64,000 bases of DNA from an uncultured Acidimicrobiia bacterium (lineage in GTDB: Bacteria; Actinomycetota; Acidimicrobiia; Spongiisociales; ZC4RG35), in NCBI GenBank assembly GCA_963744905.1, contig CAVUUV010000004.1, positions 102,360 to 166,359 on the forward strand, written 5' to 3'. A program made the position numbers and the translations under genes. Position 1 is the stretch's first letter. The number at the start of each line of letters is the position of its first letter. This document shows, piece after piece, positions 5,373 to 63,980 of the stretch. Below the pieces are notes generated by a model. That model did not search any database. It was not told the origin of the DNA and worked only from the letters and a program-made list of their open reading frames with translations.

Positions 5373-6577
5373 CTAGTGCGACTGTTCTAGGAAATCCAGC
5401 AGGGTTTGCTCGTATCGCCCCGGGTCCACGTTCCAACTGGTGACATGGCCTGCCCCCTCGACCTCGACCAACCGAACCCATCCCGGTGCCTGGGTCGCCA
5501 AGCGACGCGATACCTCAACCGGGACCCGATCATCGTCCAGACCATGGAACACCAGAGTTGGCACCTGGATTGTCTGCGCGGCCCGGTCCACGTAGTCGAT
5601 CTCGGACCAGGACACGTCCCAACGTAGGTCTGACAGCCACATCGCCACAGCCGTCAAAGAAGCCGGGACAGCGATCGACGTGCCGGGCAGCGTCCTTTTG
5701 GTGGCAGCGAAGCGGACCGTCTCTCCCATATCGACATTGGGCGAATCGAACACGACTGCAGACACACGATCAGCGAGGGGCGAATTCTGGAGAAAGGCGA
5801 GGTCGAGGGCGGCACCGGTGCTGTATCCGACGAGAACCAACTGTTGTGCGCCATGGTCTATGGCGTACTGAACCGCTCCTTCCACATCGGCCCATTCCGA
5901 TCGGCCGAAGCGATAGATGCCGCTCGGGTCGGCGGGTTCGTCGGGATCGTTGCGGTAGTCGATGACGAGCGACGTAATCCCCGCCCGGGCATAGGTCGGA
6001 AGGCTTCGCAGAGCTTCCCGCCGGGAGGCGCGCCAGCCGTGGACGTGGACTGCCCAGACCGTCCCCTCACCCGAGCCGATCTTCCATGCGGCCATGTCGC
6101 CCAGGGGTGACTCATAGGAAACGTCCTGATAGTCCAGCCCCACGGAGGACGGATCGCCCGGGTATGTCCACCCCTCAACGTCTACCGCCTCGCATTGGTC
6201 GAGCGACCCGGGACAGCGCGCGGGTAGATCACCCGAGAGGAGCTGGAAATCCCGGGTCACCTCCAGACCCGAGGTGGCAGTTATTGGGCCGAGGAGCCCG
6301 TATCCCGCCTCCCAGTAGAGACCGGCCACGCCGGGACGAAGCGTGTCCCGGCGCTCTTCCTCCGAGGTCAAGACGATGTTTCGCTCGACACCGAGCGGAC
6401 GTAGACGCCGTAGTCGTGACCGGGTGCCTCGGGGGTGAGGGCATCGCTATAAATCATGTTCGAGAAGACGATCCCGCCCGCGGCATAGAACAAGATCACC
6501 AGGCCGGCCAGGCTGCCCACCAGGATCTTGAGCCACCGGGGAACCGTTCTGCGGCGTGGGCGATCTCCGTTTGTCAT
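5373..6577 (-). CDS. Alpha/beta hydrolase with N-terminal TM anchor (apparent frameshift near 6370)
   Basis: The 332 aa ORF 5373–6371 is an alpha/beta-fold hydrolase. The 69 aa ORF 6368–6577 lies in a different frame and encodes the N-terminal signal-anchor plus linker expected for this family. The two ORFs abut. Confidence 0.7.
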
Positions 6578-7062
6578 TCAAGGATCATCCCGCTTCGGCG
6601 CGGAGCCGTCCATGGGGAACACCCCCTATAGATGTGTACAACCAGGGGCGGCCTCTCAGGAACCCGACTTCGGCATCGGGGCCATCCCGCCTGTCCGTTC
6701 TAGTAGGACGGCCGCAGTTTGATGGGCTTCTTCGGACTGCCCGACCAACATGATCAGGCCGCTATCGCATCAGGTCGTCCCCCAACACCACCCGCTCATC
6801 GTCGGCCGAGGGCAATGGGTGGCGATGAAGGGTGAAGGAGATACCCTGTTCAGGCTACCGGCCCCGCCCGCCACAGAGCCGGATGATCCTCCAGGGGTTG
6901 CCGTTCGACAGACGCCATCGCCGCGACGAGGACCGGGACTCCTGTGCCGCTTTGCCCCTTCCCTGGCCCGCCCGGCGCCTAGAGCGGCCCGGAGAAATAT
7001 CGGGCGGGCGCGAAAGGAGTCCTCTCCTCTCGGACACTCAGCACCCGAAAGGAGACACACAC

Positions 7063-7659
7063 ATGACCGACACCACCGTCCATCCTCAGCCGACCCGCAC
7101 CGGGCCCAGAGGAACCCGCATCGCCGTGATCGCCGTGATCGCCGTCTTGGCCCTCGGCACCGGTATGGCGACGCTGATCGGATTCGGCGTCCTCACCCTG
7201 GTTCCGGTAGCGACCGTCGAGCAACCCGACCACAGCCCAGCCCCCATCCCGATGCCGGCCCTGCCCGACGGGGAGATGTTCGCCTGGATCACCGGCGTCG
7301 GCGACCTCATGGTCACGGTTGATCCGGCCCAGATGCTGAGCGGAGAGCCGGCTCACGACGCCGCCGTGGAAGACGGGATCATCGCCCCGGGCGAGGATCT
7401 GCCCAACGACTACTACATCGTCAACCCCTCCAGGCAAGCCATGGACGTAGCCGTGGCAGCCAACGCCGCAGTCACGGTCTACGCCCTGGACTCCCGGGGG
7501 GCCATCGCCGAGGCGAGGATCTCCCTCCTCGATCTGGCCGCCGCCTTCGCCGGCGATCAGAGGATTCCCGTCTACGGGCTCGACCCGAGTGCCTTCCCCG
7601 TCACTTTGACCGTCGAGGGCGGGGCAGTGACTGCCATATCACAGGTGTACCTGCCCTGA
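7063..7659 (+). CDS. Hypothetical secreted/membrane-anchored protein
   Basis: An ATG at 7063 follows an AAAGGAGA RBS. An N-terminal TM/signal-anchor segment (IAVIAVIAVLALGTGMATLIGFGVL) is present. I see no recognisable domain. Confidence 0.5.
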   Translation: MTDTTVHPQPTRTGPRGTRIAVIAVIAVLALGTGMATLIGFGVLTLVPVATVEQPDHSPAPIPMPALPDGEMFAWITGVGDLMVTVDPAQMLSGEPAHDAAVEDGIIAPGEDLPNDYYIVNPSRQAMDVAVAANAAVTVYALDSRGAIAEARISLLDLAAAFAGDQRIPVYGLDPSAFPVTLTVEGGAVTAISQVYLP

Positions 7660-10293: not shown

Positions 10294-10752
10294 GTGACAG
10301 AACCTCCCAGCGGCACCGTCTCGTTCCTCTTCACCGATGTGGCCGGATCGACCCGCCTGTGGGACTCCGACCGCCGGGGAATGGCCGAGAGCCTGGCCGT
10401 CCACGACCGAATCGTGCAAGCGGCAATCGCCGACTACGGAGGCTACGTGTTCTCCACCGCCGGCGATTCATTCGGAGCCGCCTTCCCGACTGCCTCGGCC
10501 GCCGTGGAGGCGGCTCTCCAGGCTCAGCTGGCTCTGGTCGCCGAGCCGTGGATCGGACCCACGATCCGGGTTCGGATGGGCATCCACACCGGCACCTCAC
10601 AGGAGCGAGCCGCCAACTACTTCGGGCCCGAGGTCAACCGGGCGGCGAGGATAATGAGCGCTGCCAACGGCGGCCAGGTGCTGGTATCGGCCGTCACCGC
10701 CCAGCTGCTGGCCGGTTCGGGGAACGGCGTCCTACACCCTGGTCGATCGTGA
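10294..10752 (+). CDS. Adenylate/guanylate cyclase catalytic domain (N-terminal part of a cyclase–ATPase–TPR regulator; frame broken near 10735)
   Basis: FLFTDVAGSTRLW … GDSFGAAF … RVRMGIHTG… are class III cyclase motifs. The canonical C-terminal cyclase motif LVDRDLHDLKDLDRPEHLFEL continues in the frame of the next ORF. Confidence 0.75.
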   Translation: MTEPPSGTVSFLFTDVAGSTRLWDSDRRGMAESLAVHDRIVQAAIADYGGYVFSTAGDSFGAAFPTASAAVEAALQAQLALVAEPWIGPTIRVRMGIHTGTSQERAANYFGPEVNRAARIMSAANGGQVLVSAVTAQLLAGSGNGVLHPGRS

Positions 10753-10822
10753 CCTCCACGACCTGAAGGATCTCGACCGTCCGGAGCACCTATTCGAGCT
10801 GACCCACCCCGATCTGCCGGTC

Positions 10823-13177
10823 GTGACCGAGCCCATCCACACCGCCGACGTGACTCGCAACCACCTACCCGCACAGCTGACGTCGTTCGTCGGCCGTCGC
10901 CGGGAGCTCGATGCGATCGCTGCCCTGATCGAAGACTCCAGGCTGGTCACGTTGACGGGAGTGGGCGGAACCGGAAAGACCCGTCTGGCCGTGGAGGCCG
11001 CCTCCCGGGCGGAGGAGGACTACCCCGACGGTGTATGGATGGTGGAACTCGCCCCCGTCGCCGACCCCGCCCTGGTGGTCGGGGAGGTGGCGGACCTGTG
11101 GGGTCTACGGGCCGGTGAGGGGGTGGATCTGATCAGGGTGGTCAAGTCACACGTGGCCCGACAGACAATGCTGTTGGTGGTCGACAACTGCGAGCACGTG
11201 CTGGAGTCGGCCGCCGACCTGGTGGCCCAGCTGCTGGCCGCCGCTCCGGGTCTGACGGTCATCGCCACCTCGCGAGAATCGCTGGGGATAGGCGGAGAGG
11301 CCGTGTACCGGGTGCCATCCCTGGGCCTACCCGAGCGGTCGTCGGGGGCCGATGCATCCGACGCCGTGCAACTCTTCCTGGACCGGGCCGCTCACAAGGG
11401 AGGCGACGACATCCCGGCCACGGAGATGGAGGCGGTGGTGAGAATCTGTCGCCGCCTGGACGGGATTCCTCTCGGTATCGAGCTGGCCGCCGCCCGTCTC
11501 CGCACTCTCAGTGCCACGGAGCTGGCTGACCGTCTCGACGCTTCTTTCCGCATCCTGACCGGCGCCTCCAAGACGGCGGTGTCCCGCCAACGCACCCTTC
11601 AGACCGCAATCGACTGGTCCTACGATCTTCTCGGCGAGGAGACCGCGGCCGTGTTCCGCCGCCTATCCGTCTTCGCAGGTGGCTTCGACCTGGCCGCGGC
11701 CGAAGCGGTGGGCGTCGACGAGGCGATCCAGGACTGGCAGGTGCTCGACCACATCGACCAGCTGGTCGACAAGTCCTTGATCGTCGCCGCCCACCACGGG
11801 GGACAAACCAGATTCCGGATGCTCGAGCCGATCCGCCAGTACGGCCAGGAGCGGCTGGCGGCCGCCGGCGAGGCCGACGCCGTATATGAGGCCCATGCTC
11901 GACACTATGCCGGATATGTGGCCGAGGTGGCCCCGGGCCTCCGGAGCCGGGAACAGCGCCGTGCCAATGACGAATTGCTGGCCGAGTGGGACAACATCCG
12001 TCTCGCCCTGGCCACGCTCCAGGATAAGGGTCGCGCCGATCTGCTCTTGTTGACCTGCTTCGACCTGACCTGGTTCTTCAACCAATCCAGCCTTCTCGTG
12101 GAGGGACGTGAGCTGGTTCTGTCCGCTCTGCAGTCGGTGGGGAACGAGGCTTCTGACGAGGCGGCGGCCCGAGCCTGGTGGGAGGCGGCAATACTGGCCA
12201 CCTTCCTCACCGATCCCCGAGGGATCGACTATGCGGAGAGAGGGCTGGAACGGGCTCGTGCCGGCGGTCTACCCGGCCTGGAGGGCTGGTTGAGCGCCGC
12301 CCGGGGTATGACCGCACGGCTTCTCGATCCCGGCCGGGTGGATGACAGGGACTGGCTGGCCGAGGGAGTCCGTCTGGTCAATGAGAGTCCCGGCCTGCCG
12401 CTGTTCGATGGGGCGTGGGATGACGTCTTCTTGGATTTCATGGTGCTCTTCGCCGGGGGCTCGCCTGAGGGGGTAGAAGGCCCAGACACCCTCCCCCGCC
12501 AGAGGGCGATGAGTCCCGGCGCGGACGCGGGCCATTTCCTCGACTCCCTGGTGAGCCGGGCCATGACCGTGGGCGACCTGAACATGGCCGCCAACGTCAT
12601 GACCCTGGCAACATCGGTTCCCGACCAAGACGATTGGGTACTCGAACAGCTCCACCGCAGTGTGGAGATGCTCGAAGAGCTGGACTTTCGTCACGGGCTG
12701 GGCCATTCCCTGTTCTACCTGGGCGTGGAGACCCAGGACCGGGGAGTCGGCGATGGGATCGATGACCTGGCTCGGGCCTCGCAGATGCTGGCCGAACTGG
12801 GGGACCTGCCCTGTTCGACCTGGTCCGCCGCCCGGCTGATCCGCGCCTTGCTGGACTCCGATGAGCTCGACGAGGCGGGACGGTACCTGGCCGGCTCGGT
12901 GGGGAGGTTGATCGATTTCGAGCGTGAGATCCCCTCCGATCTTCCGGCACTGGCCTGCCGTTATGCGGTGGCTCGCGGAGACAACATCACGGCCGCCCGG
13001 GCGCTCGGCCACCATCTGGCTCATCACGCCGACAGTGACGATGAGGCTGCCCGCTGTCTGGAGAGGTTGGAAAGCATCCTCGACGTGGGGGAACTAGAGA
13101 GGCGAATGGCTGAGGGGGCCGCCACATCCCCGTCCGAGGTGCTGGCCTGGATCCAGCAGGCGGTGGCGACCGCCTGA
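10823..13177 (+). CDS. NB-ARC/AAA ATPase + TPR regulatory protein (C-terminal part of a cyclase–ATPase–TPR regulator)
   Basis: A Walker A motif (LTGVGGTGKTRLA) is present. The protein has 784 aa and a TPR-like C-terminal half. This architecture is typical of the large actinobacterial cyclase/ATPase/TPR regulators. Confidence 0.8.
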   Translation: MTEPIHTADVTRNHLPAQLTSFVGRRRELDAIAALIEDSRLVTLTGVGGTGKTRLAVEAASRAEEDYPDGVWMVELAPVADPALVVGEVADLWGLRAGEGVDLIRVVKSHVARQTMLLVVDNCEHVLESAADLVAQLLAAAPGLTVIATSRESLGIGGEAVYRVPSLGLPERSSGADASDAVQLFLDRAAHKGGDDIPATEMEAVVRICRRLDGIPLGIELAAARLRTLSATELADRLDASFRILTGASKTAVSRQRTLQTAIDWSYDLLGEETAAVFRRLSVFAGGFDLAAAEAVGVDEAIQDWQVLDHIDQLVDKSLIVAAHHGGQTRFRMLEPIRQYGQERLAAAGEADAVYEAHARHYAGYVAEVAPGLRSREQRRANDELLAEWDNIRLALATLQDKGRADLLLLTCFDLTWFFNQSSLLVEGRELVLSALQSVGNEASDEAAARAWWEAAILATFLTDPRGIDYAERGLERARAGGLPGLEGWLSAARGMTARLLDPGRVDDRDWLAEGVRLVNESPGLPLFDGAWDDVFLDFMVLFAGGSPEGVEGPDTLPRQRAMSPGADAGHFLDSLVSRAMTVGDLNMAANVMTLATSVPDQDDWVLEQLHRSVEMLEELDFRHGLGHSLFYLGVETQDRGVGDGIDDLARASQMLAELGDLPCSTWSAARLIRALLDSDELDEAGRYLAGSVGRLIDFEREIPSDLPALACRYAVARGDNITAARALGHHLAHHADSDDEAARCLERLESILDVGELERRMAEGAATSPSEVLAWIQQAVATA

Positions 13178-17549: not shown

Positions 17550-18245
17550 ATGGCTGATCGGCGCTGGCCGCGAGTTGCCCTCTCGATTCTCGGCATCCAC
17601 AACCTGACGCAGAATTCATTTCTAAATGAGCGGGGCTACGTGGCAGGAAATCTCGTGGTGTCGGGGCTGATGATCGGTGTCGGGCGTGCCGCGGGGTTGG
17701 AGTGGGCCGAGATGGGACTCGATCGGGGCGACCTCCGACGCAGTCTGGACGTCGGCGCGATTGCGGCCGGTGCCGGCTCGGCCGCCGCCCTCCTCCTTCT
17801 CGAGAGTCGGCGCGGGCGAAGGTTCCTCCACGACGAGCGGGCAATCGGAACGGGCCACCGGATATGGAGTCGGGCCCTGATTCGATTCCCGATCGGCACG
17901 GCCCTGTTCGAGGAGGTCGCCTTCCGTGGTGTCCTCCCGGGGCTGATTCGGCAGGGTCGGGGGGCGTTCCCGGCCGAGGTCCGTTCTGCTGTGGCTTTCG
18001 GGCTCTGGCACCTGATCCCGACCCGAACGGCCCTGTCGTCCAACCCGGCCGGTCGGGAACTTTCGGTCAAGCAGCGTCTGCTGGTGATCGTCGGTGGGTC
18101 GGCCGGAGCCGGTGTGGCCGGCCTCGTCCTCAGCTGGATGAGGCGATACGCCGGCAGCCTCCTGGCTCCCTGGGTGGCACATTCATCCTTCAATACCCTG
18201 AGCTATCTGGCCGGCGTGGCTGCCGCCAAGCTCTCGTCGAATTAG
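17550..18245 (+). CDS. CPBP-family intramembrane metalloprotease (CAAX protease-like)
   Basis: EEVAFRG and FGLWH motifs sit in TM segments. The chosen start is the ATG at 17550. Confidence 0.65.
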   Translation: MADRRWPRVALSILGIHNLTQNSFLNERGYVAGNLVVSGLMIGVGRAAGLEWAEMGLDRGDLRRSLDVGAIAAGAGSAAALLLLESRRGRRFLHDERAIGTGHRIWSRALIRFPIGTALFEEVAFRGVLPGLIRQGRGAFPAEVRSAVAFGLWHLIPTRTALSSNPAGRELSVKQRLLVIVGGSAGAGVAGLVLSWMRRYAGSLLAPWVAHSSFNTLSYLAGVAAAKLSSN

Positions 18246-18292: not shown

Positions 18293-18923
18293 TCAGCGGG
18301 ACCGGAGGGTGTCGAGGCCCGGTCCCTGGAGGTCGTCGAGGGCGACGCGTCGCCCACAGGTGGCCATTAGCAGCGCCTCGGCGGGACCACGCACCTCCGG
18401 GCCCTCGCCATGGGACCAGTCCGTGTCAGTCGCCACGAGCCGGAGACCGGCGATACGGTCCTTGTTGCCCAGAACTGATCCGGTGCGGACCATCGACCAG
18501 AGGGCGCGAACCGTCCTCTCGACGGGTGGAACCCTGTCTATCGCCAGAGGCCGGCGCATGTCCTGGCCATGAACGATCGCCTCCGCAAGGAGTCCCGCGG
18601 GCGTAGTGCCGGGTAGGACGACGGCGGCTCACGGCGGACTCTCTCAGCCGCCCCGCCAGATCCCGAGGGCTCGCATCGTCACCGACTCGAATGGAGAGCC
18701 GCCGGCTGGCACGATTGAAGTCGAATCCCGATCTGATCAGGTAGGCCAGGAACCTGGAAACACCCCCGCCTTCGGCTCCCATCACCACGTGGGCGAAGAC
18801 GTGACGGACCTTCCAGCCGTCGCACAGCGACGGCGCATCCCACTGCGTGTCTGACAGCGACTCGCCGAGGTCGGCCAGATCTTCACGCTCTGCGACGACC
18901 GCCTCCCAATCGTCCATCTTCAT
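18293..18923 (-). CDS. DinB_2 / mycothiol-dependent maleylpyruvate-isomerase-N-terminal-domain family protein (TIGR03083-like), apparent frameshift near 18625
   Basis: The N-terminal ORF (…WDAPSLCDGWKVRHVFAHVV…) and the C-terminal ORF (…EAIVHGQDM…RLVATDTDWSHGEGPEVRGPAEALLMA…) lie in different frames. Together they span the family. Confidence 0.55.
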
Positions 18924-21805: not shown

Positions 21806-22416
21806 ATGGCAACGCGAGGTAGGCGATACCACCACGGCAACCTGCGACAGGTGCTGCTCGAGACGGTAGGGGCGACGATCCGCCGGGACGGGCTGGAGGC
21901 AGTCACCCTGCGCGAAGTTGCCAGGCGCGCCGGGGTGTCCCATGCCGCTCCGGCCCACCACTTCACAGTCTCCGCGGGCTCCTGACCAGCTTCGCCATCG
22001 CTGGATACGACCTACTCACGGACCAATTCGAGTCCACCCTGGCTCGGCTGGAGGGTGAGAACACCACCCCGCTGGAGACCTCCCACGAACTGGGCGTGAC
22101 CTACGTACGATTCGCCGTTGACCGGCGCGAGTACTTCGAGGTCATGTATCGCCACGAGCTGCTCGACACCCGGGACCCGGCGTTCGTCCAGGCCCGTGAT
22201 CGGTCAGGCGAGTACCTGATGCGGGCCGTCGATGCGGGCCGCCAGGCGGGATGGGCGACGGACGCAGATCCCAAGTCCGCCGCCCTTGCCGCCTGGTCCG
22301 TCGTCCACGGCCTGGCGTCCCTGTGGGTCACCGAAACCCTGGCCGATCGCCTCGCCGGCCGTGATGTCGACGAACTCGCCCGGGCCGTGCTGCGCATCAC
22401 CATCGCTCCTCGTTGA
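21806..22416 (+). CDS. TetR-family transcriptional regulator (apparent frameshift near 21963)
   Basis: The HTH segment GLEAVTLREVARRAGVSHAAPAHHF is followed, after a 1-nt shift, by …GLLTSFAIAGYDLL… and then the TetR_C region (ORF 22096–22416). Confidence 0.6.
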
Positions 22417-22449: not shown

Positions 22450-23227
22450 CAAGTCGGCTCGACGAGTTGAGAGGTCGCTAACGGAATCGAGCCCGTGATA
22501 TGTCTGATAATCGATCTCTCTTAGCCAGATTTCCCTTCCGGAGATACAGCTCATCCGCTTGGGCAATGACGGCTCGAGCTGCCTCTTCCAGACCTGAGGT
22601 GCTCAACGTCCTCGCCAGATGGACGTGCAGGTCAGCGCGGAAGTCCACCATGGCGTCGGGAACCAGGTCTATGGCCGATTGGGCGAGTTGAATTGCGTTG
22701 TCGGCCTTCCCCCCGGCCGGCCAAGGCCAGGGCTTGCGTCGATCGCCACAGGGCCTGTGGCACCACCCTCTGTGAAGGTGCCTTGTCTCGACTCAGTTCA
22801 GCCATCTCGGCGGCCTCATCGAGATCTCCCTTCTGGGACAAGACCCTTGCCAGCAGGGCGGCCGCCTCTGATGCCTCTCTCGAATCCCCATGTCCAGATC
22901 CAGTCGGAGGGCCCGCCTCAGTGCATCCCCGGCGGCGTCGAGCTCACCGGCAAGTGTCTCCACCTCGGCACGCCGCTTGCCGAGCAGCGTCAGGGGACGG
23001 CGGGCCTGGGCGTGCTCCTTCAAGACGACTTCAGCGCGGTCGACCATCTGGCGAGCTCGTTCGAACTGACCGTTCATCGCATGCAGACAGCCAAGGATCG
23101 GCAATACCGCTGCGCTCTGCTCACCCCGCCAAAGGGCTAACTCCTCACATTCCTCGATGCATTGCGGTACGGGCATTGGACCTTCCTCCAGTGAGGTGGC
23201 CAGCATCCGGCGGGCGCCAAGTTGCAT
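22450..23227 (-). pseudogene. Remnant of the TPR region of a regulator (multiple frameshifts, no N-terminus)
   Basis: TPR-like helical repeats are readable across three frames (…GKADNAIQLAQSAIDLVPD…, …EAAALLARVLSQKGDLDEAAEMA…, …ALWRGEQSAAVLPILGCLHAMNGQFERARQMV…). One frame switch coincides with a C6 homopolymer at 22711. Confidence 0.45.
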
Positions 23228-23280
23228 CTGTCATCCCCAAGGGAATGAGACCAAGGCTCGACTCTGCTAGATGAGAGCGA

Positions 23281-24736
23281 TCACCCATTCGCGTCTCCGA
23301 TTCTGACCCACGGCTGCGATGTGGCGACAGCGTTGGCTGCTGCCCAATCCGGGTACGTACTTACAACGGTGAGGAGCAGGTCACCGTTGGCGTTGGTCCT
23401 CCATCTGTACACGTCAGTCACGCCGTTGGGCCAGGCGATGGTCAGCCGATCACCTTCGATCGTGTAGTCGCCGGCCTGTTCGAACGATCCTTCAAAGGCG
23501 GGAGAAGTGTGGACGAAGCTGACCGTGCCATGTGAGAAGGTCCACGTGTAAATCCCCGCCAATATCGAGATCTTCTCTGGATAGTCGGTCTCGTCGGCTC
23601 CCCCCGCTCGGTATTGATCCTCGGTGGTCTCGAATCGGTAGACGCCGTCGATGACACCGTCTGCCGTGACATGATCTGATTGACCGCCGCACGGGACGGG
23701 GGCTACGGCTGACACCTGCGAAGTACGCTTCAGTTCGGCGATGCGGTCGATCAACGACTTGGTGAGCTCGTCGCTCAGCAAATCCGCGTAGACGGAGGCT
23801 GTGGCTGCCTCCAGGGCTGTCAGGTCGCCCTCACCAGCCAGCACCACAGCCTGGCCAGTAATGCAAAACCGGAGGGCGGCGACGGCATCGCTCGGCGTGT
23901 TTTCGATCGACCACGTGCGAGTTTCGGCGGCTGCCTGTTGGAGAATCGAGCGTTTGTCGTTGTCGAGCCCGGCGAACACTCCGGCGTTGACGACGAGCGA
24001 GTTCACCTTTGGATAGAAGGTGACGTTGCCGGTCGCTGTCCCGGAAGGATCAAGCCGATATTCCGACTCCATGCCCGCCTGGGTGGATTCATCGATCTCG
24101 TCGTCGGTGACAGTGGCCCCCAACGAGGTGAATATCGCCTCAGTGATAGCCGAGGTTGGGGTTCGTATCGTCTTCCCTGAGTAGTCTGCTGGGCCGAGAA
24201 ACGGCTTCGAGAATCCGAACGGGTGACGCAGTCCCTCGGGTAGGAGGGCGAGGCCCACGATCCCTATCTGGTCGAGCCCGGACAGCAAGTCGTCGGCCAG
24301 GTCGCTGTCGATGACCTCGGCGACGAGCGTCCGTTGTTACGAGAAACGGCGCGTTCAAGGCCCGCAGGCTTGTTACGCCTTCGGTGTCCCAGGCCCTCGC
24401 AGGGATGTTTCCCATCTCGAGATCGCCATCGACAACCATGTGGGCCACCTTCTGATCCCAGTCGGACAACCCGGTTCCGGCGGCATGCCACACCGGTTTG
24501 ACAGTGATAGTGCCCTCCGACAGCTGCGCGACCCTACGGGCGAACTCCTCGACCTGGTCACTGGCCGGCCGCCCCTGGCCGTCGTCGGTCCCCATCCTGA
24601 GGACCAGCGGTGGCGCGGCACCACCTGCTTTGCTGACCCCGGCACCCTTGCTGCAGGCGCTCATGGTCAACACGACGGCCAAGGCTCCGATCGCCACTCT
24701 GCCGAGCTTGCTCATTGGTGTCCTCCACGTGTCCAC
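23281..24736 (-). CDS. DctP-family (TRAP-type) solute-binding lipoprotein with C-terminal extension, apparent frameshift near 24335
   Basis: A lipobox (LTMSACS) is followed by DctP-like N-terminal motifs. After a frame switch the protein continues …LLSGLDQIGIVGLALLPEGLRHPFGFSKP…. No DctQ/DctM genes are nearby. Confidence 0.6.
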
Positions 24737-26621: not shown

Positions 26622-27183
26622 ATGGCCGACCTCATCTACGCCATCAGCGCGTCACTCGACGGCTTTATCGCCGACGAGAACGGCAACTTCGACTGGTCGT
26701 ACCCATCTGAGGACACCCATGCCTTCTTCAACGACCTCCAGCGATCGGTGGGCACCTTCCTTTGCGGCCGTCGCATGTATGAGACGATGAGGGTGTGGGA
26801 CACACTTCTCCTCGACGACCTCCCCGACGTAGAACGCGAGTTCGCCGAGGCGTGGCGGGATACCGACAAGGTCGTCTACTCATCCACTCTGGATACCGTG
26901 CCGGAAGCGCGGACCCGTATGGAGCGGACGTTCGACCTCGAAGTGGTACAGAACATGAAGGACAAAGCCGACCGCGACCTGTCCATCGGTGGCGCCGGCC
27001 TCGCTGCTGAGGCCATAAGGGCAGGCCTCGTCGACCGGTATCTACTGCGCCTGGTCCCGACGATCGTCGGTGGGGGCACCTCTGCCCTTCCCGATGCAAC
27101 GAGCGATCGACCTCGCTCTCCACACGACTCGTCGCTTCGACGATGGCTCCGTTCTGCTCGAGTATGGCCGCCGAGGAGCCTGA
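26622..27183 (+). CDS. Dihydrofolate-reductase-family protein (RibD C-terminal domain-like), apparent frameshift near 27095
   Basis: The N-terminal motif is …LIYAISASLDGFIADENG…. The canonical C-terminus …RAIDLALHTTRRFDDGSVLLEYGRRGA* is readable in the +1 frame, ending at 27183. Confidence 0.65.
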
Positions 27184-27372
27184 AGGACCGAGGCAACACG
27201 GAAGCTCGGCAAACTGACCAGAACCCTCCACCACGCGTTTCACCACCATTCGCAGTGTCGCCAAGGAGAATCTGGCATCCGTTGGACCGGTGCACGACTG
27301 CCCTCAGCCCTTCCAGGTTTGACAGGTATGGTCGACGGGTAGGCCGCCGAACGACATGCGAAGGAGGGTTTC

Positions 27373-27810
27373 ATGCCATCAACCGACTATGTCGCCGAAG
27401 CCACCATCGAAATACGGTCGACGCCCGAAGACGTGTGGGATGCGCTGACCGAGCCCGAACGGATCCAGAAGTACATGTTCGGCACCCGGGTGGAAACGGA
27501 CTGGAATGTCGGCAGCCCAATCGCCTGGAAGGGCGAATGGCAGGGAAAGCAGTACGAGGACAAGGGCAAAATCCTCGTCTTCGACCCGGAACGAGAGCTC
27601 AGCTACAGCCACTACAGCCCTCTGACCGGCGCCCCTGACGTTCCAGAGAACTACCACACCGTCACCATCAAGCTCACCTCTGACGATGGTGTAACGAATG
27701 TCACACTCACTCAGGACAACAACGACACCGAAGAAGCCAGAGACCACTCCCAACGGAACTGGTCAACCATGCTGCAGGCGCTGAAGGAACATGTAGAAGC
27801 CGGCTACTGA
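27373..27810 (+). CDS. SRPBCC-family protein (AHSA1/Aha1-like)
   Basis: 145 aa. The …PEDVWDALTEPERIQKYMFG… pattern matches the family. Confidence 0.75.
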   Translation: MPSTDYVAEATIEIRSTPEDVWDALTEPERIQKYMFGTRVETDWNVGSPIAWKGEWQGKQYEDKGKILVFDPERELSYSHYSPLTGAPDVPENYHTVTIKLTSDDGVTNVTLTQDNNDTEEARDHSQRNWSTMLQALKEHVEAGY

Positions 27811-31674: not shown

Positions 31675-33873
31675 TTATGCGGTTCGGGCGAAGAAGTCGA
31701 CCAACACCTCGACCACTGCCGCTGGATGCTCGGCATGAAAGACATGCCCGGCTTTTTCGAAGATGACCAGCTCGGAGTGGGGTGCGAGCCGGGCTATGGA
31801 CCGAGCATTGTCGGTCGGGACCAGCAAGTCTCTGTCGCCGGCCATTACCAGCAGGGGGACCTCGAGTCTCGCCAACCGATCCGAGGCGTCGAACGACCTC
31901 ATCGCCTCCGAACGACGGCCCAGCTCCTCGAGCGAATGCGGGTACGCCTGCTTGCTGGCCAGGAACCACTCTCCCACCTCGGGGTGGTGACGGAGGGTGT
32001 CGGGGTGGAATCCGATGCCGAGCACTGCCTCCCTATCGGCGTCGCCGGCGTCAGGGTCACGAAACCAACGGGGACTGCAGCGTCGCCGGTCACCTCGTTC
32101 CGGCGCTCGGCCTAGGAACGGTGGACCTGGATGCCCCGACCCTTGACGGGGAGGCCATCTGATGGATAGGCGGGCCCGCCGTAGACCAGCGACCCATCCG
32201 GGGCCGCGGACTGTGATCCAGAACAGATCGCGGTCGGATGTGGCCAGACGCTCGTCCGTCGCAACCACGTCGAAGCTGTAGCCGGCCTCTCCATTCAGGC
32301 GTGCCGTGCCGGAGAAACGTGCGATACCGTCGGCGATACGAAGGTCACGCAGAGAAGTGGCGTGCAAGTTGAAGCCACGCCCAGCCTGCAGCTCCAGATT
32401 GCCGGCCACGGTTCCCGATCGGGTCCAGCGGGCCACGAATCCGAAGGTGGCCTTGGGCGAGGCCTCGGGCCTGCCCGGCAACGATCCGACCGGAGAGCTG
32501 ACCCACCCTCCCCCGGTGACGAAGGTATCGGGGTCGAACACGAACACGGTGCCGATCTGCGCCGTGTCGGAACCGCCGTCGTCGTCGGTGACTGTGACGG
32601 CGACCGTGTACGTTCCCGGCATCTGATACTCGTGGGAGGCCGAAGCGTTGCCGGCACCGCCCGACTCGCTCACCGCTCCCGGCGACGAAGAACCGTCTCC
32701 CCAATCGAACGTGGCGACATGGGTGTCTTCGAATCCGGCGTCGGTGAAGTCCGCCCAGGCCGTGACGGCCGTCGCCAGGGGAGAGAGGGCCGGCAATCCG
32801 GATGTGGACGTGATCACCGGGGGAAGGTTCGTCACCGTGACCGTGAACCCGTCGGTGGCAGTGAGCAGGCCGTCGTCGGCCGTGACCACCGTCGGTCGAT
32901 GATCGGCGTCGTCGGGCTCCAAGCGGGACCAGCTCCAGGAGCCGTCTCCGTTGTCGACGAAACCGGTGCAGAAACCCGAGCAGCTCAGGTCGAGGGGGTC
33001 CCCGTCCGGATCCGAGAACGACCCCGAAGTGGAGGCCAGGGACCCCTCGGGGACGGTCACGTCGGCAGCGCCCGACTGCACCTCGGGAGGATCGTTGATC
33101 TGCTCGAAAGTAACGGGACCAAACCGCACACCCGCCTGCGAGAAGGCGTACAGGGCGAACCCGCCCGTCGGGAAGGCTCCGGTCTCATCGAATTCGAGCT
33201 GGTCGTTGACCCACAACCGGAGGTGGTCGGTCTCGTACTCGACGACGAAGTGGTAGGTGGAGCCGTTCACCCATCCCGCGTCTCCGAGGTTGGCCCCCCG
33301 AGCCAGCTCCTCGACCACTGCTGCGCCTCCCAGAGAAGCGTGGCTCCACAACTCCCCCCACAGGGGGACTCCCTCGATCCGGGTCAGGGCCAATCCCGGG
33401 GTGCCGTCGACCGGATCCGGGAAGTCGAACCAGCTGATCGACTGGGCGGCCTTTCGCCAGTCGACCAGCAGATAGTCGGCCCCCGGGTTGGTGATGTCAC
33501 CGGGGTCGTATCCAAGCGCCAGGCCGAAGAAGTCGTCATCGAAACCGTCCGGCATGGTGAAGTCGACAGTGATCCGGTAGTCGTCGGCCGGGTGGCCGCT
33601 GGCGAAGAAGGTGGGCGCACCGTTGACCACCTGGCTGACCACCTCGTTGCCGGATTGGAGCTGCCACTCCCCCGGCTGGGTGTAGATACCGGCGGGTGCC
33701 GGCGAAGACTCCCCGGTCCAGCCGGAGAGGTCGACCGGGCCGGCGGCCAGTGCTGGGGCGGCAAGCGCCATCGTGACCAGGGCGGTCAGGATCACATATC
33801 TTCGCATTGTCGACCCTCGCGCCCCACGGGCCTTACTCTCAGTGACAGAATACCACTCAGAGTGGGGACACAA
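31675..33873 (-). CDS. Secreted LamG/concanavalin-like (DUF1080-type) + PKD-domain protein whose reading frame runs into an alpha/beta-hydrolase C-terminal fragment
   Basis: A signal peptide and then a jelly-roll-like N-domain are followed by a PKD-like repeat (…FDWGDGSS…YTVAVTVTDDDG…). The last ~115 aa resemble only the C-terminal half of an alpha/beta hydrolase (…LLVMAGDRDLLVP…EKAGHVFHAEHP…). Confidence 0.6.
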   Translation of the reverse strand: MCPHSEWYSVTESKARGARGSTMRRYVILTALVTMALAAPALAAGPVDLSGWTGESSPAPAGIYTQPGEWQLQSGNEVVSQVVNGAPTFFASGHPADDYRITVDFTMPDGFDDDFFGLALGYDPGDITNPGADYLLVDWRKAAQSISWFDFPDPVDGTPGLALTRIEGVPLWGELWSHASLGGAAVVEELARGANLGDAGWVNGSTYHFVVEYETDHLRLWVNDQLEFDETGAFPTGGFALYAFSQAGVRFGPVTFEQINDPPEVQSGAADVTVPEGSLASTSGSFSDPDGDPLDLSCSGFCTGFVDNGDGSWSWSRLEPDDADHRPTVVTADDGLLTATDGFTVTVTNLPPVITSTSGLPALSPLATAVTAWADFTDAGFEDTHVATFDWGDGSSSPGAVSESGGAGNASASHEYQMPGTYTVAVTVTDDDGGSDTAQIGTVFVFDPDTFVTGGGWVSSPVGSLPGRPEASPKATFGFVARWTRSGTVAGNLELQAGRGFNLHATSLRDLRIADGIARFSGTARLNGEAGYSFDVVATDERLATSDRDLFWITVRGPGWVAGLRRARLSIRWPPRQGSGHPGPPFLGRAPERGDRRRCSPRWFRDPDAGDADREAVLGIGFHPDTLRHHPEVGEWFLASKQAYPHSLEELGRRSEAMRSFDASDRLARLEVPLLVMAGDRDLLVPTDNARSIARLAPHSELVIFEKAGHVFHAEHPAAVVEVLVDFFARTA

Positions 33874-35432: not shown

Positions 35433-35676
35433 TCTTCTCCCTCAGCTTCTCTCTCCCAACCGTACTCTTCGACCCGAGGGTGTGGGCGCGAAGACTATGA
35501 GTCTTCGCGGGGACTCGTCCGGCGACATCCCCTCCGCCGGGGCGTTTCGTCCCGGCTTCCAGTCGTGGTGGTAACCGAGATCGTTTCAGCCCGGCTCCGC
35601 CGGCGTCCGGGAGGCTGGCCCGGCCAATGAACGCACCCGTCCAGGGCCGGAGTACCCCCCGACCTCGTCGATGCCG

Positions 35677-45216: not shown

Positions 45217-47498
45217 TCGGTCGGCCGCTTCGCCGCCTCGAGGATTCCCATCTGATCACCGGCAGAGGACGTTACGTCGACGACATCTCACTCCCCTCCA
45301 CGGCCCACGCCGTCTTCGTCCGTAGTGTCGAGGCCCATGCCCTGATCCGATCGGTGAGCCTCGACCAACGCGACGCCGGTCGGGCCCGACTCTTTGGGCC
45401 TCGCGAGCTCGGCCTGACGGCCCCGGTCCAGAACCAGCATCCCTCCCCACTGATCGAGCGCTCCACACAGGCTCCACCCCTGTCCGACCACGAGGTGTGC
45501 TTCGTTGGCCAGCCGATAGCCGTGGTCGTGGCTCCGACGGCTCAGGAGGCAACCGATGCAGCCGGTGCCGTTCTGATCGACTACGAACCGCTCCCGACGA
45601 TGACAGATCATCGTCGGGCATTGGACGTAGATGCCCCTCCCGTGCATTTGGGAGGTGACGGCAACCTCATCGCCACTCTCAGCGCCTCCTTCGGCGAGGT
45701 CGAGGCCGGGTTCGCCACAGCACCTCGAAGGCTGGCCCTGGACGTGGATCAACACCGGGGGGCGGGCGCCTCGATGGAGGGCCGGGCGATCCTGGCTAGT
45801 TGGGAAGAGGGAGAGCTGAAGCTGTGGACTTCGACGCAGGCACCCTATGCGGTTCGAAGCCATCTGGCGTCATATCTCGGTTTGAAGCCCGATTCCGTAA
45901 GGGTGATCGCACCGGATGTCGGGGGTGGCTTCGGGCCGAAGGCAGCCGTCTACCCCGAGGAGTACGTCGTTGCGGCCCTGGCCATTCATCTGAGACAACC
46001 CGTCAAGTGGATCGAACAGCGCCGCGAGAACTTCACGGCCACCTACCAGCAGCGCGGCCAGAGCGGCCGGATCGAGGTGGCCTTCGACGACAACGGAAGG
46101 GTCCTGGCCCTTCGCGCCCACCTCACACACGACTGCGGTGCCTTCGTGCCTTACGGGATCGTGGTCCCCATGACAACGCTCCGTCTGATGTCGGGCCCCT
46201 ACCGGATCCCCGCCCTGGAGGCGACGATCGAATGCGTGTTCACCAACGCCACTCCGACCGCAGCCATCAGAGGGGCCGGCCGACCCAATGCCTGCTTCGC
46301 GCTGGAGCGGACGATGGATGCGATCGCCCGATCGCTGAACCTGGAGAGGGAGACGATTCGGCGTCGCAACTTCATACCCGTCGATGCCCTTCCCTATCAG
46401 GTCGATATCCCCGGCTCGGACGGTCGGCCCATCACCTACGACAGCGGAGATTTCACCCGGGCGCTCGATGCGGCGCTGGAGGCGGCGCGAATCGACGATT
46501 TCCCGAGCCGCCGGGAAGTCTCGGAGCGGAGCGGCCTTCGGCGCGGATACGGCATCGCCTCGTACATCGAAGACACCGGGATGGGCCCCTTCGAAGGAGC
46601 CCGGATCGAGATTCTCGCCGGCGGAGAGGTCCTGGTCGAGACCGGAGCCGGAGCCCAGGGTCAGGGACATGAGACCGTCTTCGCCCAGATATGTGCCCAG
46701 CACCTGGGCGTCGAACCGGGCCGAGTGAGGGTCAGGAGTGGAGACACCGCCTTCTACAGCCACGGCGTCGCCACCGTTGCCAGCAGGACCGGTCAGACCA
46801 CGGCCGCCGCCGTCAGCGTGGCGGCCGAAGAGCTCGCTTCGATCACCAAGGAACTGGCTGCCGACGAGCTCGAGGCTGCATTCGAGGACATCGCCCTCGA
46901 AGGGGGCATGGCCATGGTTGTCGGCCAACCTGGTACCGAGATTCCCTTCGCCGACCTGGTGAGCCGCCTGTCCCGGGCGGATGCGTTCCCCACCCGTCTG
47001 CGAAGGCCCGGGCTCTCGGTGGAACGGGTCGTCCCCTTCGGCGGACTCGGATTCACATACGGGACCCACGTCGCCGAGGTCGAGGTCGATCCCGAGACCG
47101 GACATGTCAGGGTGGTCGGATACATCGTGGTCCACGACTGTGGCACGTTGATCAACCCGATGATCGTCGACGGCCAGATCGACGGCGGGGTGGCGCATGG
47201 ATTGGGTAACGCTCTGATGGAGCGCGTCCAGTTCTCCGACTCCGGCCAGCCGCTGACGACTTCTTTCATGGACTACCACCTGATGACGGCGGTTGAGATG
47301 CCGCCCTTGGTCAAGACGCACACCGTTACGCCCTCTCCCAACAATCCTCTTGGAACAAAGGGGGCTGGCGAGGGCGGCACGATCCCGGCGGCTGCCGCCG
47401 TGACATCGGCCGTCGAGCACGCTCTCTCCGACCGGGGTGTGATCGTGAATCACTACCCGGTTGAGATGCAGTGGGTGCAGAAGGCCGCCACCGGCTGA
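45213..47498 (+). CDS. Xanthine-dehydrogenase-family molybdopterin-binding large subunit (CoxL/aldehyde-oxidase-like)
   Basis: 761 aa. The N-terminal …RLEDSHLITGRGRYVDD… region and the Mo-cofactor domain motifs (…GGGFG…, …GEGGT…) are present. No small or medium subunit genes are adjacent. Confidence 0.85.
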   Translation: MIGRPLRRLEDSHLITGRGRYVDDISLPSTAHAVFVRSVEAHALIRSVSLDQRDAGRARLFGPRELGLTAPVQNQHPSPLIERSTQAPPLSDHEVCFVGQPIAVVVAPTAQEATDAAGAVLIDYEPLPTMTDHRRALDVDAPPVHLGGDGNLIATLSASFGEVEAGFATAPRRLALDVDQHRGAGASMEGRAILASWEEGELKLWTSTQAPYAVRSHLASYLGLKPDSVRVIAPDVGGGFGPKAAVYPEEYVVAALAIHLRQPVKWIEQRRENFTATYQQRGQSGRIEVAFDDNGRVLALRAHLTHDCGAFVPYGIVVPMTTLRLMSGPYRIPALEATIECVFTNATPTAAIRGAGRPNACFALERTMDAIARSLNLERETIRRRNFIPVDALPYQVDIPGSDGRPITYDSGDFTRALDAALEAARIDDFPSRREVSERSGLRRGYGIASYIEDTGMGPFEGARIEILAGGEVLVETGAGAQGQGHETVFAQICAQHLGVEPGRVRVRSGDTAFYSHGVATVASRTGQTTAAAVSVAAEELASITKELAADELEAAFEDIALEGGMAMVVGQPGTEIPFADLVSRLSRADAFPTRLRRPGLSVERVVPFGGLGFTYGTHVAEVEVDPETGHVRVVGYIVVHDCGTLINPMIVDGQIDGGVAHGLGNALMERVQFSDSGQPLTTSFMDYHLMTAVEMPPLVKTHTVTPSPNNPLGTKGAGEGGTIPAAAAVTSAVEHALSDRGVIVNHYPVEMQWVQKAATG

Positions 47499-47522
47499 GT
47501 CCGCCAACCAAAGGAGACAGGC

Positions 47523-48302
47523 GTGGACCTAGGAATCTCGGGCAAGAAGGCCCTGCTGACGGCATCCAGCCGGGGCCTGGGCAAAGCCTGTGCCATTGCC
47601 CTGGCAGCAGAAGGAGTGAACGTGGTCATCAACGGCAGGGACGAGGCCACCCTGGAGGCGTCGGCCGAAGAGATCAGGCACCGATTCGACGTAGAGGTGC
47701 TGGGCGTCCCCGCCGACATCAACTCCGATCAGGGCCGACAGAGTCTGCTGGAGAGCTGCCCCGATCCCGACATTCTCGTCAACAACAACTGGGGGCCTCC
47801 ACCAGGCGCTTGGGAGGACTTCGAATACGACGACTGGCTGGGAGCCGTAGAGGCGAACATGCTGGCACCGATAATGATGATCAAGGGGGTGATCGCCGGG
47901 ATGAAGGAGAGGCGCTTCGGGCGAATCGTCAACATCACCTCCCAGATGGTCAAGTCACCCTTTCGGGTGATGGGACTCTCGGCCGGCGCCCGTACCGGGC
48001 TGACTGCCGCAGTGAAAGTGCTGTCCCGTGATGTGGCCCGCTTCAATGTCACCATCAACAACCTCCTCCCTGAACGGATAGACACCGAACGTCAGGTGTA
48101 CATGGCCAGGAGGCAGGCCGAATCCGCCGGTATCACCTATGAGGAGGCGCGGCGCCAAATCGTCGACAGCATCGCCGCCCAGCGCATGGGCCGGCCCGAG
48201 GAATTCGGGGCCGCCTGTGCCTTCTTGTGCGGCGCCGACTCGGGATACATCTCCGGCCAGAACCTGCAGCTGGACGGGGGATCCTATCGAGGCACGTTCT
48301 GA
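47523..48302 (+). CDS. SDR-family oxidoreductase (3-oxoacyl-ACP reductase-like)
   Basis: The Gly-rich loop is TASSRGLGKAC and the family core is present. The likely start is the GTG at 47523. Confidence 0.75.
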   Translation: MDLGISGKKALLTASSRGLGKACAIALAAEGVNVVINGRDEATLEASAEEIRHRFDVEVLGVPADINSDQGRQSLLESCPDPDILVNNNWGPPPGAWEDFEYDDWLGAVEANMLAPIMMIKGVIAGMKERRFGRIVNITSQMVKSPFRVMGLSAGARTGLTAAVKVLSRDVARFNVTINNLLPERIDTERQVYMARRQAESAGITYEEARRQIVDSIAAQRMGRPEEFGAACAFLCGADSGYISGQNLQLDGGSYRGTF

Positions 48303-61976: not shown

Positions 61977-63112
61977 TCGTCGAGGTAGTGGCGGTCGGCA
62001 CCGAGCTCCTCATCGGCCAGATCATCAACTCCAACGCCGCCGCCATCGGCCGCCGGCTGGCCGAGGAAGGCTTCGACGCCCACTTCCAGGTGACGGTAGG
62101 CGACAACCTCTCCCGATTGTCTTTCACTCTCAGGCAGGCCCACCAACGGGCGGATGCGGTCGTCATCACCGGGGGCATCGGCCCCACCCAGGACGACCTC
62201 ACCCGCCAGGCGCTGTGTAACCTCGCCGACCGTCCGATGATCCGGGACCGCGAGCACGCCGCCTGGATCGAGGACCGAATCCGCTCCTCCCGGGGGACGG
62301 TGTCGGAGAACGTGCTGCGCATGGCCGACCTCCCCGAGGGTGCGGAGGGTCTGGTCAACGCCAACGGGGTGGCACTCGGGGTGGCGCTGGAGCATCAGGG
62401 AAAGTGGCTCTTCGCCATGCCCGGTGTTCCAGCCGAGATGATGATGATGTTCGACCAGGAGGTACTCCCCCGGCTCCGCCGACTTTCGGGCTCTCCCGCC
62501 GTCCTCCTCAGCCGGGTGCTGAGAACCTGGGGCCTGGGCGAATCTCAGGTGGCCGAGCGCCTCGACGACCTCTTCACGGCCACCAACCCGTCAGTGGCCT
62601 TCCTCATCAGTGATATGGAGGTCCAGGTCCGGATCAGCGCCAAGGCGCCGGACAGGGAGACGGCAAGAGACCTGATAGAGCCGGTGGAGCGGCAGGTGCG
62701 GGAGAGGCTTGGTGGGGCGGTGTTCGGCAGTGATTCCGATCGCGTCGAGGACCTGATCCTGGGCGGGCTCTCCGCCCAGGCCTGGACGGTGGCCACGGTC
62801 GAGCACGCCACCCTGGGTCAGGTGGGAGCTCGTCTCGCCACAACACTCGGCGAGGCCTTTAGGGGTTCGATCATCCCTCCGTCCGGTGAGGCCGAACCAT
62901 CACCGCCCCCGGCCGACGTGATCCTCCACGTCGGTGAGATCGGGACGGATCCGGCCGAGCGCCGCACGACCCGGGCGGTCGACATGGACGTCCGCACACC
63001 GGTCAGATCCATCGAGCGTACTTTCAGGTTCGGAGGCGACGACGAGCGCCTACGCTCTTTCGCGGTCATCGCCGGACTGCACATGATCCGTCAGGCCATC
63101 GAGCCCTCATGA
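61973..63112 (+). CDS. cinA: CinA-family competence/damage-inducible protein (MoCF-binding domain + CinA C-terminal domain)
   Basis: A probable TTG start at 61973 overlaps the upstream stop. IVEVVAVGTELLIGQIINSN… is the classical CinA N-terminus. Confidence 0.75.
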   Translation: MIVEVVAVGTELLIGQIINSNAAAIGRRLAEEGFDAHFQVTVGDNLSRLSFTLRQAHQRADAVVITGGIGPTQDDLTRQALCNLADRPMIRDREHAAWIEDRIRSSRGTVSENVLRMADLPEGAEGLVNANGVALGVALEHQGKWLFAMPGVPAEMMMMFDQEVLPRLRRLSGSPAVLLSRVLRTWGLGESQVAERLDDLFTATNPSVAFLISDMEVQVRISAKAPDRETARDLIEPVERQVRERLGGAVFGSDSDRVEDLILGGLSAQAWTVATVEHATLGQVGARLATTLGEAFRGSIIPPSGEAEPSPPPADVILHVGEIGTDPAERRTTRAVDMDVRTPVRSIERTFRFGGDDERLRSFAVIAGLHMIRQAIEPS

Positions 63113-63980
63113 TCGCCGGCAGCCGGCTGCGTGACCATCTCGCTCGCCGGCCACTGCTCACTGCGGTCGTATATACGGGGGTTGGGGTTCTGCCCATGTT
63201 CCTGGTCAGCGCCCAGATCCTCCAGTTGGGGCGGGAGATCGACTTCGGCGTTGCCCGGCTCGGTTTGGCCACCGCATTCTTCTTCGGAATGGCCGCCTTG
63301 GCCGCCAACCCGGCCGGTCAGGTGGTGGCGCGCCTCGGCCCTCGCCAGGGTTTGCGCATCGGCAGCTCTCTCACCGTGGTTGCCTGCATCCTGGCCGCCT
63401 CCGCTTCGGCCTGGTGGGTGATACCCGTGGCCACCGCCCTGGGTGGAATCGGCAATGGGACGATCCAGGTAGCGGCCAACGTGGCCATCTTCGACGGCGT
63501 CACCCGGCGAAGGCAGGGATTGGCCTTCGGGAGCAAACAGGCCTCCGTCCCCTTGGCCAGCATGCTGGCCGGACTCTCACTGCCGGTGATCGGACTCGTG
63601 TTCGGGTGGCGCTGGGTCTTCATCGGCGCCGCCTTGCTGGCCCTGATGCTGGCCGCTTCTGCCCCCGCTCCTGCCAACAGGAGAAAAGAGATCGAGGCAC
63701 GAGGGACCCATGGGCCGCCCGCCACCATCTCTGATACTCCTGGGGCTGGCCGGGATCAGTGGGGCCATGGCCGGCAACGGTGTCTCTCTGTTCGTCGTCC
63801 CCTCGGCCGTGGCGGTTGGCATCAGCGAGGCGGCGGCCGGGGCCGTCCTGGCGGTCTGCTCGTTCCTGGCGATGGCCGTGCGCATGGCGGCGGGCTGGAC
63901 CGTGGATAGGCGGGGATCCAGCGGTCACACCGAGATGGCCTGGCTGGTGGGGGCCGGCGCGGTGGGGGCTCTGGTACTGA
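63109..63980 (+). CDS. MFS transporter (runs off the window end; possible frameshift near 63718)
   Basis: Six TM helices and then the central loop are read in the frame of the start codon. The second half (…PPPSLILLGLAGISGAMAGNGVSLFVVP…) is readable in the -1 frame and continues to the end of the window. Confidence 0.65.

Follow-up and report, generated by a model that had tools for sequence, protein, structure and literature searches.

At a series of conserved genes on a contig from an uncultured Acidimicrobiia bacterium, parts of a single protein lie in different reading frames, raising the question of whether these genes are decaying or whether the assembly carries errors in its base counts. 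The window analyzed here is a 64-kb part of an unannotated, 274,842-bp metagenome contig. It contains 13 supported frameshifts and one suspected frameshift (Table 1); about one-fifth of its genes are broken by an insertion or deletion of 1 to 2 bases, and the density is approximately one frameshift per 4.5 to 5 kb. An initial annotation had listed eleven split loci, and at each of these a single protein family was found in two pieces that occupy different frames. The list was incomplete, as one further frameshift was confirmed in an MFS_3 transporter gene and another is suspected in a gene for a PKD protein (~32200). An apparent triple-frame gene formed by overlapping plus-strand ORFs at 2801-4591 was rejected, this region consisting of separate NUDIX, ECF-sigma and unknown genes.

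Alignment to two assemblies with 98.8 to 99.8% identity, GCA_049579045.1 and Logan SRR28023568, pinned eight of the shifts to the base, including those at seven of the eleven listed loci. Six of the eight were +1 insertions, one was a 1-base deletion and one a 2-base deletion. The 2-base deletion is the lesion in the DctP gene, for which a single-base change had been proposed. At the four other listed loci (the alpha/beta hydrolase at ~6380, TetR at ~21960, the TPR gene and MFS_1 at ~63720), the evidence for a shift came only from homology.

Table 1. Frameshift sites in the window (positions are those of the window)
Gene	Position	Strand	Change and evidence
Alpha/beta hydrolase	6371..6385	-	Shift separating a membrane anchor at the N-terminus (frame of 6371-6577) from the body (5376-6446); located to interval
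Adenylate-cyclase/AAA_16 regulator, 10294-13177	10723	+	+1 insertion, GGGGA[A]CGG; single-base gap versus relative
MDMPI/DinB-type gene, 18296-18923	18618	-	+1 insertion within a substitution cluster; alignment gap
TetR regulator	21955..21968	+	Shift between TetR_N and TetR_C_33 (Pfam split, translations); located to interval
TPR gene (244 aa, ~22460-23206), second shift	22705..22716	-	At C6/G6 run; three-frame reading
TPR gene (244 aa, ~22460-23206), first shift	22900..22925	-	Located to interval; three-frame reading
DctP-family solute-binding lipoprotein	24327..24328	-	2-bp deletion, GAG[CT]CGT; alignment gap
RibD_C gene (DHFR-family protein), starting at 26622	27104	+	+1 insertion, GAG[C]GATCG; alignment gap
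PKD/Big_9 secreted protein	32195..32210	-	Suspected frameshift; translations and Pfam
Tannase-like/DUF6351 secreted hydrolase, 34046-35441	34607	-	+1 insertion, GACGC[G]ATAGG on plus strand; gap versus L078
M24 peptidase, near 3′ end	35774	-	+1 insertion, C2 to C3 in C-rich tract; gap versus L078
MFS_3 transporter	49690	+	1-base deletion, nine codons ahead of stop
Family III CoA-transferase	53799	-	+1 insertion, ATCT[C]GCC on plus strand; gap versus Logan contig L077
MFS_1 transporter, loop between halves	63700..63735	+	Pfam pieces 6-166 and 202-290 in two frames; located to interval

At the pinned sites, protein comparisons were consistent with the alignment gaps. The Guanylate_cyc (4-156 of 183) and AAA_16 domains of the cyclase regulator are in split frames, as are MDMPI_N and MDMPI_C of the DinB-type gene; contig L073 of the relative encodes an intact 959-aa counterpart of the former and an intact 207-aa MDMPI_N protein corresponding to the latter. 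In the DctP gene, codon-position frame tracking flips exactly at 24326/24327 and the Pfam DctP match begins at model position 87; the counterpart in L001 is uninterrupted for 475 residues, up to the contig end. The insertion in the RibD_C gene exchanges the last ~25 residues for a 178-aa out-of-frame tail, with the Pfam match ending at 175 of 197, and L001 encodes an intact 186-aa protein. For the tannase-like hydrolase, the Pfam pieces (positions 116-148 and 414-449) occupy two frames, and 120 homologues of 416 to 484 aa align with the repaired protein over 90 to 100%. Repair of the M24 peptidase frame extends the Peptidase_M24 match from 3-194 to 3-208 of 208 positions (161.7 bits). The gap in the MFS_3 gene was identical versus two assemblies (L075 and L077), the product in the relative being 428 aa. 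The CoA_transf_3 match of the window's CoA-transferase ends at 327 of 366, and almost all of the homologues among the matches listed are 391 to 398 aa. An intact 396-aa protein (P0188) matches the repaired query with 99% identity across 100% of its length. The frameshifted form (P0189, 388 aa) is a singleton cluster present only on the 274,842-bp contig, and this allele was found on no other contig in a collection of 15 billion proteins. For the truncated products of 26622-27638 and 18426-18923, no record was found, not even that of the source contig itself, such that this search is uninformative on support for these alleles.

Homologues, Pfam matches or both also bear on the sites located to an interval. 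Frame tracking in the alpha/beta hydrolase flips at 6380/6381, and a Deinococcus plasmid hydrolase spans residues 26-398 of the repaired protein in one piece, over the junction at residue 63. Metagenome homologues, of ≤47% identity and informative on colinearity only, cover residues 4-194 of the repaired TetR protein in a single segment; this lesion is probably a 1-base deletion. The TPR gene contains two compensating shifts (~22915 and ~22711), that at the C6/G6 run being plausibly a change from G5 to G6. Homologue P0429 aligns across all three segments and repair raises the TPR_MalT match from 16.9 to 38.9 bits; a phmmer match to regulators of 1265 to 1270 aa ends at query residue 119. In the MFS_1 gene, frame tracking flips at 63731 and repair renders 6-290 contiguous (80.8 bits). 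Abhydrolase_6 positions 100-217 are fused behind the PKD domains of the PKD/Big_9 ORF, which is suspected of running through a frameshift into a fragment located downstream (31678-32145), the C-terminal part of an alpha/beta hydrolase.

The initial annotation had offered either a systematic homopolymer artefact or extensive pseudogenisation. Comparison of orthologous loci favored an artefact: the indels at all eight pinned sites were private to the window, full-length proteins being present in GCA_049579045.1 or Logan SRR28023568, and P0189 was a singleton. Neither the homopolymer label nor pseudogenisation common to the relatives was upheld. As nearly identical assemblies have these genes intact, the frameshifts are most likely consensus errors rather than gene decay, and we assign a probability of roughly 0.84 to their being indel errors in the consensus of a metagenome assembly of this uncultured organism, built from long reads and polished lightly or not at all. 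The absence of shared lesions at eight of eight pinned sites rules out, at the level of sequence comparison, a pseudogenisation shared with the close relatives. An alignment of the two comparison assemblies with one another contained no gaps in 9,043 bp; the window has one gap in this stretch. The contig containing the window, present in NCBI and ENA, is ~275 kb long, whereas this species is represented in the second assembly by pieces of 1.5 to 17 kb. A Logan contig (ERR11594398) with 100% identity to the window was considered as evidence on strain or sample and rejected, the stretch covered being also identical in the relative. A scan of a genome collection with the epimerase protein detected no relative above 74% identity, no conserved synteny and no orthologous flanks.

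Under the consensus-error reading, the contig would derive from a long-read assembly with little or no polishing, the platform and assembler being ones that we infer. Errors would have entered about once per 4.5 to 5 kb, chiefly through insertion of one base into otherwise unremarkable sequence, and reads would be expected not to back the extra or missing bases. The errors seem denser where co-occurring strains differ, as judged from only four compared stretches.

An unlikely alternative is that the indels are real and private to the strain, a recent burst having inactivated ~20% of the genes in one Acidimicrobiia lineage while relatives with 99% identity kept them. The overall indel-to-substitution ratio (~1:8 to 1:20) matches that expected from real mutation, and most of the genes hit are accessory ones, encoding transporters, regulators and hydrolases. 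Broken genes are also more diverged from the relative than intact genes (0.97% versus 0.36% substitutions, a 2.7-fold difference); this fits errors clustering in strain-variable regions but also faster evolution of dispensable genes. The DctP gene alone has 3 synonymous versus 9 nonsynonymous changes. Furthermore, the relative has a frameshift of its own, in an Rce1-like gene at 17959, and frameshifts, whether real or erroneous, are therefore not exclusive to the window.

Several observations argue against real mutation. Over 40.3 kb, eight frameshifts were found in the window and one in the relative (binomial P = 0.02), both lineages having had equal time since their split. None of the codon changes relative to the relative was a stop-gain substitution. 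The mix of synonymous and nonsynonymous changes was far from neutral overall and did not differ significantly between broken (38:28) and intact (46:22) genes (P = 0.28), although few changes were available. In bacterial genes undergoing decay, indels are biased toward deletions; six insertions among eight pinned coding indels, with two deletions and hence no such bias, are the opposite of what gene decay would produce. The lesions are exclusively indels of 1 to 2 bp, with two possible exceptions, the TPR gene and the hydrolase fragment at 31678-32145, which is truncated at its 5′ end, and no IS elements are present in the window. The frameshift alleles tested were absent from other contigs of the 15-billion-protein collection, and another long contig of this kind, from ERZ25039500 (below), exhibits about the same rate of frameshifts at different genes. 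Such a pseudogene load is not known from any free-living bacterium of soil or sediment. The stricter proposition that small insertions inactivated about one-fifth of the accessory genes in one free-living strain during 0.2 to 1% divergence from gene-keeping relatives is a little more improbable still; if true, it would mean that genes were lost unusually fast, in a burst biased toward insertions, for example in a mutator or niche-restriction regime.

Systematic errors in homopolymer length, as from flow-based sequencing or early nanopore chemistry, are a very improbable source of the indels. Switch points in or next to C/G runs had been proposed, but the association is weak: only the insertion at 35774, where C2 became C3 within a C-rich tract, and possibly the unpinned TPR shift at the C6 run (22711) are located in a run. 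The insertion at 34607 is beside the C/G run and outside it. Against this explanation, the context of six of the eight pinned indels is nonrepetitive and outside runs, and one indel is a dinucleotide deletion. Across 35.8 kb compared with the relative, a length difference was confined to 1 of 96 runs of ≥5 bases and 1 of 383 runs of ≥4 bases, and the window has the intact copy in that instance. Decoding of these genes through programmed ribosomal frameshifting or transcriptional slippage is refuted because the orthologues are intact, the same proteins being in a single frame in close relatives, with mixed directions (+1, -1 and -2) and no slippery heptamer or other motif common to the fourteen sites. 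A search for a shared motif at the indel sites, of methylation type or other, found nothing consistent; three of the window alleles read GCGAT.

The value of the observation is practical rather than biological. About 20% of the gene calls on the contig are truncated, fused or split, giving false products such as the RibD_C protein with its 178-aa tail and, as suspected, the PKD protein running into a hydrolase fragment. Without polishing or frameshift-aware gene calling, annotation, protein-family statistics, claims of a "novel fusion" and pseudogene counts would be misleading, and a correction limited to homopolymers would miss most such errors.

Among known systems, Mycobacterium leprae, M. 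ulcerans, Sodalis and Shigella have undergone reductive genome decay with mass pseudogenisation. The window resembles these in having many conserved genes frameshifted at high density but differs in that its lesions are not common to relatives with 99% identity and in the lack of nonsense mutations, IS elements, deletion bias and clear relaxation of selection. The homopolymer errors of 454, Ion Torrent and Nanopore R9 data likewise generate frameshifting single-base indels, but 95 of the 96 runs of ≥5 bases have the same length in the window as in the independent assemblies. The classic nanopore signature is one of homopolymer deletions, whereas single-base insertions outside homopolymers predominate here, a point against the consensus-error reading. 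The closest likeness is to long-read (Nanopore or PacBio CLR) assemblies and MAGs, in which private indels of 1 to 2 bp split conserved genes once per few kilobases; classic descriptions of these emphasize homopolymers, unlike the mostly nonhomopolymer insertions of the window, whose source platform we infer. The source contig is also long where the other assembly of its species is fragmented, and frame-split genes recur in other long-read MAGs. The 870,704-bp "contig_11116" of a relative (ERZ25039500, ENA) has frameshifts of its own in PPDK (window position 42952) and MFS_3 (49472), two sites with no lesion in the window or in the fragmented assemblies; at least two frameshifts in ~9 kb aligned represent a rate about as high as that of the window. 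The name "contig_11116" resembles those given by Flye, a long-read assembler. Similarly, in the Microflora Danica MAGs, produced by a nanopore-only method (PMC12313526), one 1.46-kb gene was frame-split in 3 of ~13 copies versus 0 of ~60 in other assemblies. Consensus indels in nanopore assemblies cause frameshifted and fragmented gene calls, which the IDEEL test measures in long-read assemblies, and polishing with short reads is reported to be necessary for nanopore bins below ~40× coverage to attain PacBio HiFi-level quality (PMC9262707).

The initial annotation had listed at least eleven genes in the window as broken by frameshifts. Frame tracking by codon position, with long ORFs as the training set, showed frame switches uninterrupted by any gap at 6380, 10733, 24326, 34608, 53803 and 63731, and Pfam scans of ORF pairs found complementary pieces of one family at every listed locus. 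After conceptual repair, the MFS_1 match was contiguous over positions 6-290 (80.8 bits), the M24 match was complete (3-208/208) and the TPR scores increased. The repaired CoA-transferase exhibited 99% identity over its full length to a 396-aa protein, other homologues among the matches listed being nearly all of 391-398 aa, while the repaired secreted hydrolase aligned over 90-100% of its length with homologues of 416-484 aa. Residues 4-194 of the repaired TetR aligned as a single piece with metagenome homologues, and residues 26-398 of the repaired alpha/beta hydrolase aligned with a Deinococcus plasmid hydrolase, spanning the junction. The agreement of frame tracking, Pfam halves and repaired-protein matches confirmed that all of the listed genes are split across frames.

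The window has a G+C content of 65% with a strong third-position bias and derives from a contig of 274,842 bp, held at NCBI and ENA without protein accessions. Species-level neighbours were uncultured Acidimicrobiia MAGs with at most 74% amino-acid identity (epimerase gene) and no conserved synteny. Contigs of GCA_049579045.1, a fragmented MAG (contigs of 1.5-17 kb; protein names "Acidimicrobiia bacterium") referred to here as the relative, and Logan contigs of run SRR28023568 were 98.8-99.8% identical to the window in DNA. Alignment of these near-identical contigs (40.3 kb compared in total) located eight frameshifts to the base. Seven were single-base lesions, as had been proposed for all, the exception being DctP. 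The list of eleven was borne out but incomplete, as the MFS_3 deletion was observed in addition, against two other assemblies. In total, 13 supported frameshifts and one suspected were counted in 64 kb, or ~1 per 4.6 kb, close to the earlier estimate of one per 5 kb.

Frameshifts and other indels in the window and in contigs aligned to it
Feature	Window position	Change	State in other assemblies	Pfam match in window
Cyclase/ATPase regulator	10723	+1 in window	959 aa, full length	Guanylate_cyc then AAA_16
Cyclase/ATPase regulator, inside	11389-11391	in-frame +3 (GGC) in window vs relative
Rce1-like (CPBP) ORF	17959	window C6, relative C5	two split ORFs, 154 and 84 aa (relative's contig L073, 1026-1720)	complete domain spanning junction
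MDMPI gene	18618	+1 in window, within substitution cluster	207 aa, full length	MDMPI_N then MDMPI_C
TetR regulator				TetR_N then TetR_C_33
TPR gene	22460-23230 (- strand)	two compensating shifts, near 22915 and 22711 (C6 run)
DctP	24327	-2 (CT) in window	at least 475 aa	begins at model position 87
RibD_C	27104	+1 in window	186 aa, full length	stops at 175/197
PKD/Big_9 secreted protein	near 32200	suspected frameshift
Tannase-like secreted hydrolase	34607	+1 in window	at least 301 aa	two segments
M24 peptidase	35774	+1 in window, C2 to C3	176 aa (C-terminal part)	stops at 194/208
PPDK	42952	+1 in L161	intact in window and fragmented assemblies
MFS_3 transporter	49472	C5 to C4 in L161	intact in window and fragmented assemblies
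MFS_3 transporter	49690	-1 in window, nine codons 5' of stop	428 aa, full length
CoA-transferase	53799	+1 in window	396 aa, full length	CoA_transf_3 stops at 327/366
MFS_1 transporter				two halves
Intergenic indels	14322, 18951, 35495	vs near-identical contigs

Most probably (about 0.84), the frameshifts are technical in origin, an artefact of a type already known, and not a biological feature. All eight pinned lesions were private to the window, the genes being intact at each site in near-identical assemblies; the two other assemblies exhibited zero gaps against each other over 9 kb, and the window's frameshifted CoA-transferase product was a singleton in a collection of 15 billion proteins. 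Consensus errors could have arisen in pile-ups mixing co-occurring strains. The source contig is presumably a long-read product, to judge from its size, repositories and the company it keeps.

A mixture of such errors with real polymorphisms is possible. Genuine polymorphism is probable for the in-frame insertion at 11389 and for the majority of the intergenic indels; three further indels lay at the extreme end of contig L001, and none was present between 57757 and 62370. The relative had a single frameshift of its own in the compared sequence, at 17959, where the window ORF was intact (276 aa); the window is thus not alone in carrying frameshifts, whether these are real or errors.

Real mutations private to this strain, and with them the proposed pseudogenisation, are unlikely. 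Sister lineages of equal age exhibited 8 frameshifts in the window versus 1 in the relative (binomial p = 0.02), and zero stop-gains were present among the codon differences. On a small number of codon changes, synonymous to non-synonymous ratios did not differ significantly between broken (38:28) and intact (46:22) genes (p = 0.28), and selection removing most amino-acid changes should not tolerate frameshifts in a fifth of genes. Decaying bacterial genes exhibit a deletion bias; hence, the six insertions among the eight pinned indels also count toward an artefact. Broken genes did carry 2.7 times more substitutions relative to the relative than intact ones (0.97% versus 0.36%; Fisher p about 2e-8), with 23 changed codons in the 624 nt of the MDMPI gene alone and 9 non-synonymous to 3 synonymous changes in DctP alone, and frameshifts appeared denser where strains diverge more (four compared stretches only). 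The excess and the density fit consensus errors in strain-mixed pile-ups and fit faster evolution of dispensable genes as well; on these grounds, together with the DctP ratio, a small probability was kept for real mutations private to the strain. The homopolymer-driven form of the artefact was not sustained, as only 1 of 96 runs of five or more bases differed from the relative (35.8 kb compared at that stage), the window having the intact copy; the signature is non-classical, consisting of single-base insertions outside homopolymers.

The compensating shifts of the TPR gene lie in a 244-aa reading frame, and the middle ~60 residues are therefore out of frame. This gene matched the last ~250 residues of SARP/cyclase/ATPase/TPR regulators of 1265-1270 aa (residues about 1020-1140 matched), with similarity extending a few residues 5' of the Met (QLGARRML), but stand-alone homologues of 245-246 aa share its start methionine. 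The frames do switch, but the label of remnant is not required, and the sequence may represent either a remnant of a larger regulator or an independent small gene. In the fragmented MAG, contig breaks flank this gene at about 21645 and 23292. At 31678-32210 (- strand), the PKD/Big_9 protein appears to run on into a C-terminal alpha/beta-hydrolase fragment that covers only Abhydrolase_6 positions 100-217; the N-terminal half was absent from every frame, and the fragment may be a genuine 5'-truncated remnant.

In practice, these results are a warning about gene calls on the source contig. Private frameshifts were also present in L161, a related ENA contig (ERZ25039500 "contig_11116"; 870,704 bp), at other sites than those of the window, and count toward an artefact. 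L161 also lacks ~2.7 kb (window 45331-48066; junction L161 15185-15186) holding a xanthine-dehydrogenase-family gene and a short-chain dehydrogenase, and across this locus its identity to the window steps down from 96% through 88% to 82%, suggesting gene-content change and mosaic divergence. A further point in favour of an artefact is that the 1.46-kb epimerase/DUF2867 gene was frame-split in 3 of ~13 copies (loci L052, L055 and L056) from Microflora Danica MAGs versus 0 of ~60 from other assemblies; these MAGs are nanopore-only, assembled with Flye plus Medaka (PMC12313526). Frameshifted and fragmented gene calls are a known effect of consensus indels in nanopore assemblies, and short-read polishing was reported to be necessary for nanopore bins below ~40x to equal PacBio HiFi quality (PMC9262707).
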